The notes under the pieces: generated by a model
Databases searched by the model: none
Told to the model about the DNA's origin: nothing
What the model saw: the letters and a program-made list of their open reading frames with translations, nothing else
Position numbers and translations under genes: made by a program
Shown: in pieces, positions 15,551 to 20,004 of the stretch
How the letters are laid out: each line of letters starts with the position of its first letter
Position numbering within the stretch: the first letter of the stretch is position 1
Origin: a phage
DNA: 64,000 nt
Sequence record: NC_094493.1
Strand: one strand, 5' to 3'

Positions 15551-16161
15551 TCTTCTTGGGCCTCTTTAGCATCAATATACTTGCACACAATCTCCGATGC
15601 ACACTCCCAAGGTGCACCTTCAGGGTTTACAACATCGAACTCAATCCCTTTTATTCCGTTCTTTTCCAGACTTAGATAGGTTCTGGAATCATTTCCCCAG
15701 TCATATCCGACACGGTGAATACGGAACAACAACAGATCTCCACCTGTGCTGTATGCGTACTCGCTAAGGCATGCCAGCTCCTCTTTGAATCCACCATCGG
15801 AGTAAACAACAACCCCTTTACCTTTAGGGAAATCTTTCTTCAAGGATGTGACTGCGGCCTTACCGAAAGCATCTTCACCAAAGATAGGTTTAATCAGATT
15901 TTCACTACAATGGATCATCCACTCTCGCGGAGAAACATGCTTACCGTCTATCATTAAGAAAGGGCAAGGCTCTTCTTTGTAGTGGCGGTCATAAAGTGCA
16001 TTCCAGAGTTGAGGAGTTACACCAGCTGCCTTAATTGCCACGCTGAAGAGCATCTCCTTAACCTCACGATGGTGTGAGTTAGGAATAGCTTCCAACAAGA
16101 GATCTGCAATGTGATCCTTACCACTACTAGGTGGGGCGTTAAGAACAATAATATCCATCAA
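15544..16161 (-). CDS. deoxynucleoside monophosphate kinase (T4 gp1-like)
   Basis: 205 aa; N-terminal P-loop LNAPPSSGKD resembling T4 gp1 SGVKRSGKD. Confidence 0.65.
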   Translation of the reverse strand: MMDIIVLNAPPSSGKDHIADLLLEAIPNSHHREVKEMLFSVAIKAAGVTPQLWNALYDRHYKEEPCPFLMIDGKHVSPREWMIHCSENLIKPIFGEDAFGKAAVTSLKKDFPKGKGVVVYSDGGFKEELACLSEYAYSTGGDLLLFRIHRVGYDWGNDSRTYLSLEKNGIKGIEFDVVNPEGAPWECASEIVCKYIDAKEAQEEC

Positions 16162-16361
16162 AAACCTCCGTGGTATTCTTCAACTGCATCAATAATACTT
16201 TTACACTTATCTACCAGCTCGTTAGCCACTACAGCATCGTCTTCCCAAACAGCCTCTTCAATCTGATCAAGCAATGATCGCATCTTATCCATCATTTCTG
16301 GGATAAAGTTTTCTGAAAAGCTGTCTGGAACTGTTAACCTTAGTGTCATTGCGGTCTCCAA
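16158..16361 (-). CDS. hypothetical acidic small protein
   Basis: 67-aa ORF, acidic, coupled to dNMP kinase gene. Confidence 0.3.
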   Translation of the reverse strand: METAMTLRLTVPDSFSENFIPEMMDKMRSLLDQIEEAVWEDDAVVANELVDKCKSIIDAVEEYHGGF

Positions 16362-16376
16362 TCATACTATGCGTTA

Positions 16377-16835
16377 TTAGAAGTTTGTTTTTACACGTCC
16401 CTTTTCATCTACCTCATTGTTAGCTAAAAGCGTTACAAAGTCTGTGAAACGGACATGAAGAACTCTTTTCTTGTCAAGGTATCCTAAAGCCACCCCTGAA
16501 AAATTTAGCATCAAGGGGGCTAAAGAAGCTCTAGCACTGAAATGCTGTTGTTCTACTCTTCCTACACCCTTAGTGTAGGATGGGTTAAGATTGTAAGTTC
16601 TGAATCCCAGTTTTGTTGGAGCTTTAGAATTAAAAACAACTTTATAGCGTTTCTTACTCAACTTATGCTCCAGGATAAGAATTCCCTTATCACCCTTGAT
16701 AAGTTGAAAATCTGTAAAGTGCTCTTTTAAGACGAAAGGTAGTGCCAGTCCCATCGCCTGCCCTCTTTGTACCGCTGTCTCACCAAAAGCTTTCGCATCA
16801 GTGAGTTCTTTGGTCAAGTCTATGCTTTTGATCAT
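16377..16835 (-). CDS. hypothetical protein, possible PD-(D/E)xK nuclease
   Basis: 152 aa; candidate D-x9-ExK (IKGDKGILILEHK); 5' end overlaps the 3' end of the upstream methyltransferase gene by about 38 nt. Confidence 0.3.
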   Translation of the reverse strand: MIKSIDLTKELTDAKAFGETAVQRGQAMGLALPFVLKEHFTDFQLIKGDKGILILEHKLSKKRYKVVFNSKAPTKLGFRTYNLNPSYTKGVGRVEQQHFSARASLAPLMLNFSGVALGYLDKKRVLHVRFTDFVTLLANNEVDEKGRVKTNF

Positions 16836-17646
16836 ACCTGGTCTCCAAAATGTATTGTAGTTCTTTCTTGCCTATACTCTTCATTCCAGCAGTCTTACCT
16901 GCTTCTTCTTGAAAAGAAGAATAGCATTCAGCAAACACTCTGTCAACACCGTCAACTAAAGATTTTATGAAATATGTCGATTCTTCAGATTTTGGGTCAT
17001 CATCTCCCAATACTTTTCCAGCATTATACCCAACACGTCTTACACAGAAGTCGTAGTCATCTGGAGTGCTAAAAGAAAATAACTTATTCTCTCCAATCTC
17101 TACAGGATCCCTATTACACGCCTTTTTCTCCCAAATTTGGAAAACACACGGCACGTCATAAGGTTTGCCATTAAGTAAAAACGAATTCTTAGGGCACCTT
17201 TCGCTGTAGACAAGGTGCATCGACATGTCCAGTTTGTTTGCAAAAAATATTTTTTCAAATGTCCGTGGCAAGATGAAGGCTATAGCCCCTCCAAGCTCTA
17301 GCAATGATGCACAATGGTTGAAGAATTTGCAAGCTAAAGATGAATTCTTGCCAAATGGTGGGTTACCTATGAAGACATCTGCCTTGGGATGCACCTCCAA
17401 GAAGTTTGCCTGAATGCACGGTGTTGGTCCTTCAAATTCAGGATCTGGTACTAAATCGTACGACAGTATCTCTGAAAATAGTTTTGAAAAAGAACCCCTT
17501 CCAGCAGAAGGCTCAACGTATGCACAATTCCCATACTTATCTTTTACTTTACCAACAAGATATTCTGCATACTCAGGGTTTGTGTAATATTTGTCGTTGG
17601 ACTCTTTCTTACTCAAAGTGCCTCCAAAAGGAAAAGGGAGGCGCAA
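16798..17646 (-). CDS. DNA N6-adenine methyltransferase (gamma-class)
   Basis: 282 aa; motif I VEPSAGRGSF followed by motif IV FIGNPPFG. Confidence 0.7.
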   Translation of the reverse strand: MRLPFPFGGTLSKKESNDKYYTNPEYAEYLVGKVKDKYGNCAYVEPSAGRGSFSKLFSEILSYDLVPDPEFEGPTPCIQANFLEVHPKADVFIGNPPFGKNSSLACKFFNHCASLLELGGAIAFILPRTFEKIFFANKLDMSMHLVYSERCPKNSFLLNGKPYDVPCVFQIWEKKACNRDPVEIGENKLFSFSTPDDYDFCVRRVGYNAGKVLGDDDPKSEESTYFIKSLVDGVDRVFAECYSSFQEEAGKTAGMKSIGKKELQYILETRYDQKHRLDQRTH

Positions 17647-17661
17647 GCCTCCCTCTACTTG

Positions 17662-18657: not shown

Positions 18658-18879
18658 TTAGTAAAACTGAAGAATGTCTTTTAAAGCGAAGTCACGATAT
18701 TCGCCCTTGTCTACATCGAAGGCACGCATCAACCACTGCTCTTCTTTATGATACTCTGTAGAGCCAAACCATAAATTAGGCTCAGTAACGCAGCGATCTG
18801 CAACAACACCTTTCCAGTTACGGTATTTCATCCTGATCAGGACTGAGTCGCAAGGATTGAATACCTTTTTCATCCCCAT
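18658..18879 (-). CDS. hypothetical small protein
   Basis: 73-aa ORF, overlaps 3' end of 18818..19423. Confidence 0.3.
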   Translation of the reverse strand: MGMKKVFNPCDSVLIRMKYRNWKGVVADRCVTEPNLWFGSTEYHKEEQWLMRAFDVDKGEYRDFALKDILQFY

Positions 18880-19423
18880 AGAAATCTCTCTCCTCAGTTT
18901 TCTTTATAAACTCCTGCATGTAGAGCTCAATAGCCTCATGCTTGGTGCACTCTGGATTAATGACAAGATTGAGATCTGATTCTGCTCGTGCAATAATCGT
19001 AGCTTTAGAGCATCTCCTCAAGAACTTTGTCATATCATCTCTGTAGTTTTTGTGGAGCGGGAAGTCGCTGTAGTCTTTCTCCAAATAGTCAGCCATCCGG
19101 CGCAACGCCTCTGATAAACTGCAATCTGTATACTCGTTACAGTATTTCATCCAGTATTTAAGCACATACCCCTCAAAGGTATTAGTGCATTGAGACAAAA
19201 CACCCCTGCAACGACCAGTCAGATGATCATGATCTAAACAAGGCTTACGAAGTGGCTCGCACAAGATCGGATCAAGACCATCCTGCTCCTCTGACAATTC
19301 TTTTCGAAAGTTGGCTATGTCCTTAGAATCTTTTAACCACCCGTTATGAACTGGGGCTTTGACAGCTTTCTTTCTTATTTTACGCTTTGCGATAATCCCT
19401 CCAGATGAGCCCTGCCTATCCAA
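18818..19423 (-). CDS. Endonuclease VII-like junction-resolving nuclease
   Basis: 201 aa; CLDHDHLTGRCRGVLSQCTN matches Endo VII His-Me/zinc motif. Confidence 0.65.
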   Translation of the reverse strand: MDRQGSSGGIIAKRKIRKKAVKAPVHNGWLKDSKDIANFRKELSEEQDGLDPILCEPLRKPCLDHDHLTGRCRGVLSQCTNTFEGYVLKYWMKYCNEYTDCSLSEALRRMADYLEKDYSDFPLHKNYRDDMTKFLRRCSKATIIARAESDLNLVINPECTKHEAIELYMQEFIKKTEERDFYGDEKGIQSLRLSPDQDEIP

Positions 19424-20004
19424 TAAGCATCTGCGAGATCGGCCTTACCTTGTACCAAATTGATCCCGTCTAGGAACCCAGGTTCAGATACTTCGCAGGC
19501 CTTAACCATCAACTTTTTATCCATTGTAACAGGTTTCTTCACAGTATGCTCTTTACCTGTCTTTTTGTCAAGCTTTTTCTTCTCCTCAAAAGCAAGTTCT
19601 TCAGGAAGATGACTACGAGCAAACTTTTTGGCAGTTGTTGGTGTCACTGTGTGGACCTTAAACAGGCCGTCATTTTCACAATCAGCTAAGGCATCCCAAA
19701 GCATAATTTCAAGACCGTAAAACAACCCAGCCAGTTCACGTGTGGCATCCCCGCGTGATCCAAAGGAAAGCCCTTCCATAACCACGGTGTCAACGTGATG
19801 CGTGTGGATATAATATCTGACCTGTTTGCAGATCCAGTCAATACGCTCAGCAGCTGTTGCAAAAGAAACCGTCCCTGGTTTCTTCTCTTTTGCAGATGAG
19901 CTTTGAGTTCGTAACACAACCTTATGAACAGGCTTTCCATCGTCCCATACAACGCAAGCTGTGTGTGTCAACGACTGGTCTATGGATAATAGACGCTCTC
20001 TCAT
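19375..20004 (-). CDS. RNase H-fold nuclease, possibly RuvC-like resolvase
   Basis: 209 aa; LSIDQSLTHTACVV and VVMEGLSFG resemble RuvC carboxylate motifs; weak. Confidence 0.3.
   Translation of the reverse strand: MRERLLSIDQSLTHTACVVWDDGKPVHKVVLRTQSSSAKEKKPGTVSFATAAERIDWICKQVRYYIHTHHVDTVVMEGLSFGSRGDATRELAGLFYGLEIMLWDALADCENDGLFKVHTVTPTTAKKFARSHLPEELAFEEKKKLDKKTGKEHTVKKPVTMDKKLMVKACEVSEPGFLDGINLVQGKADLADAYWIGRAHLEGLSQSVK

Follow-up and report, generated by a model that had tools for sequence, protein, structure and literature searches.

RsaI cleaves GTAC (PMC6256690, PMC2588503), genomes with restriction-modification (R-M) systems for GTAC avoid this tetranucleotide, and N6-methylation of its adenine (GTm6AC) by a methylase of the gamma type blocks RsaI (PMC2588503). 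Two overlapping genes of a Vequintavirus (an rV5-like coliphage) are compared here with systems of this kind. They lie in a stretch of 64,000 nucleotides (nt) of the phage sequence NC_094493.1, referred to as the window. One gene codes for a putative gamma-type methylase and the other for a basic protein of 152 residues, called the partner. Together they probably constitute a phage-borne Type II R-M cassette, in which the methylase is joined to a diverged RsaI-like endonuclease and GTAC is the probable target. This assignment is based on the genes themselves, the methylase motifs, the conserved linkage of the pair and the depletion of GTAC, together with a predicted nuclease fold and a probable remote homology to RsaI-like enzymes. 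From these observations we infer catalytic activity, GTAC as the target shared by both proteins, and the base that is methylated. What is new is the occurrence of a probable R-M cassette of known kind in an unusual carrier, and a GTAC-free lineage without the methylase represents an instructive natural variant. No paper describing this methylase-partner pair was found in the literature searched.

Comparison with described systems

The RsaI system of Rhodobacter blasticus 28/5 (GT^AC) resembles the window pair in the presumed recognition of GTAC, in its small endonuclease and in a host genome that avoids GTAC (PMC6256690; PMC2588503). In contrast, M.RsaI produces N4-methylcytosine and belongs to another class (PMC6256690, PMC2588503), while the window enzyme bears the NPPF typical of N6-adenine enzymes. 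As regards the methylase, a likeness at the level of class was found with HpyAXII of Helicobacter pylori, whose gamma-type, M.TaqI-like adenine methylase acts on GTAC with a mark that blocks RsaI, and whose catalytic Asn is residue 87, as compared with residue 85 in the window methylase (272-residue numbering) (PMC2588503). On the other hand, M.HpyAXII has 331 residues, and R.HpyAXII adopts the PabI 'half-pipe' fold and not that of the PD-(D/E)xK nucleases. The R-M enzymes of chloroviruses are thought to aid the degradation of host DNA, which is the role proposed for the window pair. CviQI of chlorella virus, set beside the pair by its description, likewise acts on GTAC, is encoded by a virus and includes an adenine methylase (PMC2588503). 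It differs in that the virus is that of a eukaryotic alga and in the staggered ends produced by R.CviQI, the fold neighbours of the partner being mostly blunt cutters.

The cassettes of the cyanomyoviruses (genes 153/154 of Syn19 and genes 47/48 of ACG-2014j) are like the window pair in their layout, since the gene of an endonuclease of 167-171 residues overlaps that of a DNA adenine methylase of ~265 residues, and in their carrier, a lytic myovirus. This endonuclease is the nearest structural relative of the partner outside its own family (template modelling (TM) score 0.66), PSxxxGxGR occurs in both proteins, and Syn19 is poor in GTAC (observed/expected ratio, O/E, 0.47). However, the cyanophage methylase is of the beta class (PF01555), in which motif IV precedes motif I, and is not related to the gamma-type enzyme of the window; the Syn19 methylase was rejected as its homologue. 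In addition, the cyanophage nucleases retain the canonical YD...E-x-K, which the window family lacks, and the identity is 13-19%. NhoI and Eco15I of the BisI family and PvuII, PD-(D/E)xK enzymes of solved structure, differ from the partner as well: the identity is 5-8%, and methylated cytosines are required by the BisI enzymes, whose recognition sequence is GCNGC.

As a separate observation, Syn19 (140 kb; L027-L029), a cyanophage with two methylase genes, shows a striking avoidance of several 4-bp sites: CCGG was absent against 117 expected occurrences, and GGCC and AGCT had O/E values of 0.20 and 0.28.

The methylase

The methylase gene, the homologue of rV5 ORF100 (annotated there with 819 nt), occupies positions 16798-17616 of the window and codes for 272 residues from a TTG at 17616; all window features located below are on the minus strand. 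The mechanically called open reading frame (ORF) is longer (16798-17646, 282 residues, TTG start). The two motifs named in the preliminary description were both located, namely motif I EPSAGRGSF (17488-17514; residues 45-53 in the 282-residue numbering), which binds S-adenosylmethionine, and the catalytic motif IV GNPPFG (17350-17367; residues 94-99). They are preceded by motif X (YYTNP, residues 20-24), and the order X, I, IV, all within 100 residues and with a motif IV of the (N/D)PP(Y/F) type, fits the gamma class (M.TaqI-like). The class that had been proposed earlier, gamma-type N6-adenine, is thus consistent with this layout. Motifs I and IV are only ~45 residues apart, so that a recognition domain between them is absent. 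In an alignment of 44 members of the family, E45, P46, S47, A48, G49, G51 and F53 of motif I and all six residues of motif IV (G94, N95, P96, P97, F98, G99) were invariant.

The methylase matched PHROG 5172 (E 1.6e-129) and, over its full length, the PADLOC Type II DNA methylase model (MTase_II PDLC03255; E 3.8e-34). Curated Pfam models remained below threshold, Eco57I scoring 15.5 bits against a cut-off of 25.3, and no match was found in NCBIfam. Judging from NPPF and the genomic context, the enzyme would form N6-methyladenine in DNA; N4-cytosine or an RNA substrate may also come into question.

An RNA methylase like the rRNA m6A methyltransferases METTL5 and Ta1320, with the pair acting on host or phage RNA, is hardly to be expected. 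The best profile matches in the PDB were indeed Ta1320 (E 3e-4) and METTL5 (E 0.04), and some sources label members of the family 'predicted RNA methylase'. These matches, and that to M.TaqI, in which positions 35-94 of the family profile align to residues 42-111, are limited to the generic region from motif X to motif IV, whereas the DNA methylase model covers the whole protein, and the methylase occurs together with a predicted DNA nuclease fold and with the depletion of a DNA word.

The homologues number more than 800, and almost all are stand-alone proteins of 250-290 residues, which indicates that the methylase is complete by itself. A split methylase, in which the 152-residue ORF would supply a missing C-terminal recognition domain or be joined by frameshift, was also considered. 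This idea arose from the length of PHROG 5172 (377 positions), from the sum 282 + 152 - 13, equal to the 421 residues of M.TaqI, and from records in which ORF101 is called a methylase. It was rejected because hundreds of homologues are complete at 250-290 residues, a search for fused forms gave none, the partner belongs to a family of its own and its predicted fold is that of a nuclease.

The partner protein

The partner gene (16377-16835; homologue of rV5 ORF101; PHROG 9938, 'unknown function') starts with ATG and codes for 152 residues with an isoelectric point (pI) of 9.95. Its 5' end overlaps the 3' end of the methylase gene in a different frame by exactly 38 nt (16798-16835), where about 38 nt had been described. 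The family is very small: when 1.8 billion representatives were scanned exhaustively with HMMER, only five distant relatives were obtained, to which a profile search added a few. The family is under clear purifying selection across ~30% identity. In a single-sequence search of the PDB, two matches at chance level were obtained (E 0.66 and 1.4).

Structure prediction of the 152-residue protein had been proposed as a check on its nuclease character. With an alignment of four sequences as input, AlphaFold gave a mean predicted local distance difference test (pLDDT) of 38, and when distant family members were added a confident model resulted (pLDDT 87). The structural matches of this model were PD-(D/E)xK nucleases only, with scores of 7.7 for NhoI, 7.6 for I-Ssp6803I, 6.8 for Eco15I, 6.6 for DpnI, 6.1 for Hjc, 5.9 for MspI and 5.2 for ThaI, followed by EcoRV, PvuII, HinP1I and SwaI at 4.9. 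Many of these neighbours are blunt cutters. Foldseek returned only weak matches to solved structures. The predicted structure contains the PD-(D/E)xK core (helix, three antiparallel strands, helix, strand), and the partner is therefore predicted to have a restriction-endonuclease-like fold of this type and not that of a non-nuclease.

A D-x9-ExK motif had been described; the peptide in question, IKGDKGILILEHK (residues 46-58), is present, the spacing being D49-x6-E56-x-K58 instead, and the residues vary within the family. The window partner carries D42, D49 and E56-H-K58 (16662-16712), a set which is complete in Vequintavirus and not conserved throughout the family, and a predicted hairpin would place D42 beside E56 and K58. 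PSYTKGVGR (16557-16583, residues 85-93) is an instance of the signature PSxxxGxGR. Its residues P85, S86, G90 and R93 do not vary in any of the alignments, those with RsaI-like sequences included; in the model this region is a loop of low confidence. As a side observation, the 102-residue database entry P0005 consists of residues 1-53 of the partner flanked on both sides by unrelated low-complexity sequence, and it is probably a chimeric or mis-assembled read.

RsaI-like relatives and bacterial pairs

When the partner model was compared with predicted viral structures by Foldseek, the best match outside the family was the 'R.RsaI endonuclease' of Syn19 (E 3.7e-4, probability 1.0, TM 0.66/0.60). 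This protein matches the PADLOC Type II endonuclease model (REase_II) with E 1.6e-11, a model to which the window partner itself gave no direct match. The RsaI-like gene of 167-171 residues overlaps its methylase gene by 28 nt in Syn19 and by 14 nt in ACG-2014j. PSxxxGxGR is common to the partner family, the cyanophage RsaI-like proteins and the bacterial homologues, and the partner is probably a remote homologue of RsaI-like restriction enzymes.

In bacterial INTERMEDIATES, where each species was represented by a single genome, members of the methylase family were located at 80 loci, mainly in Sphingomonas and Rhodobacterales and in many others too; the Helicobacter M.HpyAXII was not among these 80. 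The ORF directly downstream of the methylase matched a joint profile of the partner and RsaI-like proteins (E 7e-7, and ~1e-35 after one iteration) in a chromosome of Dehalococcoidia (L121) and in contigs of Rhodobacteraceae (L053) and Hyphomicrobiales (L112). The ORFs of Dehalococcoidia and Rhodobacteraceae bear YD...YE(V/S)(K/R)...PSNQxGQGR, and such bacterial intermediates connect the partner family with the RsaI-like family through PSxxxGxGR. At 18 other bacterial loci a different protein family of ~210 residues (PHROG 6892, unknown function) follows 3' of the methylase. One of its members gave a weak match to REase_II, and in Poseidonibacter ostreae (L054/L024) the gene stands beside a Type I system; this family is probably a second, uncharacterised endonuclease partner of the methylase family. 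It is usual for R-M systems that a single methylase family is paired with several small proteins unrelated to one another.

These findings also bear on a very improbable alternative, in which the partner would be a non-catalytic accessory or specificity subunit needed by the methylase for binding or choosing its target. The tight overlap suggests coupled translation and equal dosage, the methylase is short (~260 residues, with only ~90 past the catalytic core), and METTL5, which is among its best solved relatives, requires a small partner. However, the more than 800 homologues stand alone, most of them with no neighbour from the partner family; in bacteria the methylase family is paired with at least two unrelated families of downstream proteins; the partner survives without the methylase in one phage lineage; and its fold is that of a nuclease and neither TRMT112-like nor that of a target-recognition domain. 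The analogy with METTL5-TRMT112 was rejected in view of the same fold and of a METTL5 match of E 0.04 confined to motifs X-IV.

Linkage of the two genes across phages

Homologues of the partner and the methylase are adjacent in at least 10 divergent phage lineages. They were found in Vequintavirus, phAPEC8 and Klebsiella phage 05F01, as well as in phage contigs from TARA and from other marine or metagenomic sources (L006-L012, L015/16, L019/20 and L026). In all lineages the partner precedes the methylase, except in Vequintavirus, where the order is reversed. In the marine loci, in L026 and in related loci, the partner gene extends 8 nt past the methylase start, and in phAPEC8 a gap of 9 nt separates the two genes. 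The flanking genes also vary with the lineage, and code for primase/helicase and DNA polymerase, ribonucleotide reductase, a polymerase exonuclease subunit or others. In Salmonella phage PVP-SE1, a member of the same subfamily, the orthologous neighbours gp128 and gp129-131 are kept and exactly the methylase and the partner are absent. The swapped order, the varying flanks and this clean absence indicate that the pair behaves as a two-gene cassette. The two genes are separate, adjacent and inherited as a unit, with one lineage excepted (see below).

The preliminary description had allowed for a methylase with an unrelated neighbour or, alternatively, for a compact methylase-nuclease pair. The first of these does not agree with a strict linkage across very divergent phages and some bacterial chromosomes. 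The second is favoured by the linkage, the predicted PD-(D/E)xK fold, the probable remote kinship with RsaI-like enzymes and the depletion of GTAC in the carriers.

A homing-type or otherwise selfish site-specific endonuclease, which would mobilise the cassette between phage genomes with the methylase as cargo or as protection of the home site, is quite improbable. The pair is not sporadic but fixed in essentially all records of Vequintavirus and Phapecoctavirus, being present in ~119 of ~120 of the former and in all listed ones of the latter, always with the methylase. Moreover, an enzyme with a long target would not explain the genome-wide loss of a 4-bp word, and the related bacterial chromosomal pairs are ordinary methylase-nuclease pairs. 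The distribution differs from the sporadic one expected of a homing endonuclease of the I-Ssp6803I kind, with its long target within or beside a conserved gene.

Some further observations were made on the carriers. The methylase of 05F01 (L030:3419-4189, LC483177) is annotated as two pieces of 34 and 200 residues, yet one intact frame spans the homologue. A decayed or split gene was thereby excluded, and the annotation is probably due to an overlooked non-ATG start. Marine contigs with the cassette also carry IS605-type OrfB/TnpB genes (Cas12f-like; L042:4036-5719 and L011:597-1697), in one case with a resolvase gene, as mobile elements within phage replication modules. Finally, ~20 GenBank records of 'Campylobacter phage' (MG0656xx; host C. 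jejuni; some UNVERIFIED and none annotated) are at least 98% identical to rV5-like or phAPEC8-like E. coli phages, which points to an error in the host label or the taxonomy, or else to contaminated samples.

Depletion of GTAC

Expected numbers of GTAC were obtained from a maximal-order Markov model, with an unbiased count for palindromes. In the window, GTAC was found 106 times against 204.6 expected (O/E 0.52, z -6.9), the lowest value of the 256 tetramers. It was also the lowest of the 256 in the complete genome of Phapecoctavirus B15 (150 kb), with 162 occurrences against 455.5 (O/E 0.36), and the marine carrier L042 had 11 against 68.4 (O/E 0.16). Among phages without the cassette, the O/E was 0.72 in the close relative phi92 and 0.79 in PVP-SE1. 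In bacteria, values of 0.61, 0.65 and 0.93 were obtained for methylases with an RsaI-like neighbour, with a ~210-residue neighbour and for solitary methylases, respectively.

The most extreme depletion was observed in the P0133 lineage (12 contigs from several samples, ERZ28638501 and SRR29074720 among them), which is the sole exception to the linkage of partner and methylase. Here the partner is intact, an unrelated ORF of 112 residues replaces the methylase, and no methylase was found within 10 kb of the partner. In four contigs of this lineage GTAC did not occur at all, against 89.8, 80.6, 55.4 and 43.0 expected occurrences. It is the only absent tetramer in these contigs, the next rarest being found 24 times. 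The avoidance is synonymous and extends to all three codon phases. After a codon ending in G, Tyr was encoded 46 times by TAT and never by TAC, whereas elsewhere TAC was used 138 times and TAT 85 times; Val was never encoded by GTA before a codon starting with C (0 of 56), as compared with 131 of 335 elsewhere; and a codon xGT followed by ACx was never observed. The 112-residue ORF (L031-L036, e.g. L031:10475-10813) matches no family and occupies the exact place of the phAPEC8 methylase, between the partner and DNA polymerase I. It could bear on how the phage lives with a solitary nuclease.

Weighing of the proposed function

In the mechanism proposed for the cassette, the 272-residue gamma-type enzyme would methylate GTAC in the phage DNA, most probably to GTm6AC because its motif IV is NPPF, and the basic 152-residue protein, as a diverged RsaI-like PD-(D/E)xK endonuclease, would cut GTAC where it is unmethylated. 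The incoming genome would be methylated and its copies hemimethylated, and in this way the phage DNA would be protected, while host DNA and co-infecting DNA without the mark would be left unprotected. As to the biological use, for which host takeover or superinfection exclusion had been suggested earlier, we infer host DNA breakdown or exclusion of competitors. A more extended proposal is put forward tentatively: the virulent coliphages Vequintavirus and Phapecoctavirus, along with several marine phages, may carry an offensive GTAC cutter directed at the host chromosome and at competitors, their own DNA being guarded by the cognate methylase; one lineage may have dropped the methylase and erased all GTAC, keeping the solitary enzyme; and the active site may be a rearranged, non-canonical one of the PD-(D/E)xK type.

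A broad anti-restriction function by self-methylation had also been suggested. For Vequintavirinae, an exceptional susceptibility to the R-M systems of their hosts has been reported (PMC8594841). Since they are so sensitive to host restriction, the methylase is not a general shield, and this function is unlikely as its main role.

Several points weigh against the assignment as an R-M cassette. In the literature, neither a methylome nor an RsaI digest was found for rV5-like phages, and M.RsaI, as mentioned, is an N4-methylcytosine enzyme of another class (PMC6256690, PMC2588503). The partner had no match in Pfam, NCBIfam, the PADLOC sequence models or the PDB profile search; the hhalign comparison of its family with RsaI-like proteins (E 0.01, probability 4%) is weak when taken alone; and a match of the cyanophage protein labelled 'R.RsaI' to authentic R.RsaI could not be confirmed. 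As far as the candidate active site is concerned, position 56 is E, Q or R and position 58 is K, L, S or I across the family, D49 is replaced by S in the close lineage P0003, and D42 by V in two sequences. The residue set thus reads EHL in phAPEC8, RHK in L026 and QD(S/K) in the marine members. Where RsaI-like and bacterial homologues have the canonical D...ExK, the phage family has I54...K65-V-V67. In addition, only ~20-25 kb of the P0133 lineage was seen, and a methylase could be encoded elsewhere in the genome. Lastly, the depletion of GTAC could instead stem from restriction enzymes of the hosts. With regard to the active site, relocated catalytic residues are well known in the PD-(D/E)xK superfamily. 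A replacement of E by Q is functional in the BisI family (PMC11347163).

Part of this evidence would also suit a different and rather unlikely explanation, according to which an orphan methylase shields the phage from GTAC cutters of the host and the partner, derived from a captured restriction enzyme but catalytically dead, is retained for another task, such as DNA binding, sensing of unmethylated GTAC or regulation of the methylase. A dead enzyme would agree with the I...K-V-V at the canonical positions and with the variation of the substitute residues, host restriction is another source of site depletion, and the partner persists without the methylase, which a toxic enzyme normally could not do unless its sites were gone. 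On the other hand, a protective methylase should leave its carriers less depleted than their relatives, and the opposite was seen, the carriers having lower O/E values (0.52, 0.36, 0.16) than the relatives without methylase (0.72, 0.79); for this reason an origin of the depletion in host enzymes is disfavoured. A mere regulator of the methylase should vanish together with it, whereas the GTAC-free P0133 lineage keeps the partner unchanged in 12 contigs. The clear purifying selection on the partner family also argues against a relic.

Gene layout and neighbouring features

Over the 3.2 kb around the gene pair, the identity is 99.0% with Escherichia phage Mangalyan and 90-99% with ~120 records of Vequintavirus (rV5-like). 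Both genes are real: at identities of at least 90% they are present in ~117-119 phage records, and each has distant homologues. On their side of the window, the minus-strand genes form a block for replication and nucleotide metabolism, which comprises a RuvC-like resolvase, endonuclease VII, a DNA-polymerase exonuclease subunit, the methylase and its partner, a small acidic ORF, a deoxynucleoside monophosphate kinase, a 5'-nucleotidase and ThyX. At about 28 kb of the window, the sign of both the GC skew and the AT skew is reversed, which fits a switch of the coding strand between two divergent gene blocks.

The TTG at 17616, giving 272 residues as in the rV5 annotation, is likely to be the start of the methylase. 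It is preceded at 4 nt by a Shine-Dalgarno sequence, GGAGG (17621-17625). The TTG at 17646 lies inside a strong terminator-like hairpin (17633-17656), which has a 10-bp stem followed by a T-run and is located between the genes of the DNA-polymerase exonuclease and the methylase. The alignment with homologues begins only at residue 11 of the 282-residue numbering, and the downstream start is favoured on both grounds. The partner has its own Shine-Dalgarno sequence, GGAG (16843-16846), 7 nt 5' of its ATG, which is annotated as a ribosome-binding site in phage Mangalyan. In a promoter scan, sites were no more numerous than in shuffled sequence. A promoter-like TTGACA-17-TATTCT with an upstream TG (10/12 matches) was noted inside the methylase gene at 16918-16946, ~80 nt before the partner ATG, and is to be taken only as a lead because the scan as a whole did not exceed the shuffled sequence.

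Directly downstream of the partner, a very acidic ORF of 67 residues was found at 16158-16361 (pI 4.07; 16 D+E against 5 K+R; PHROG 7393, unknown function). Such a charge would be in keeping with a role as DNA mimic or inhibitor. It is the orthologue of gp129 of PVP-SE1 and therefore lies outside the cassette. The genes of endonuclease VII and the RuvC-like resolvase (18818-19423 and 19375-20004) are adjacent, and as called mechanically their ORFs overlap by ~49 nt. Phage records differ in the start annotated for endonuclease VII, with 159 residues in Mangalyan as compared with 192-201 in rV5 and navn.

Significance

Among the phages isolated most frequently on E. coli are those of the rV5-like and phAPEC8-like groups, which are also common members of therapy collections. 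Genes of the ORF101 type are still labelled 'hypothetical' or, wrongly, as a second methylase. If the assignment as an R-M cassette is correct, the strong compositional signature of these genomes would be explained, and a simple mechanism would be available for the breakdown of host DNA or the exclusion of co-infecting phages and plasmids. The phage DNA would also resist RsaI-type enzymes, and therefore the behaviour of these phages in cocktails and in cloning or engineering would be affected. In such a case the partner family would represent a new and very small branch of the RsaI-like endonucleases, and the lineage that lacks both GTAC and the methylase would offer a rare example from nature of a restriction enzyme that is kept without its methylase.

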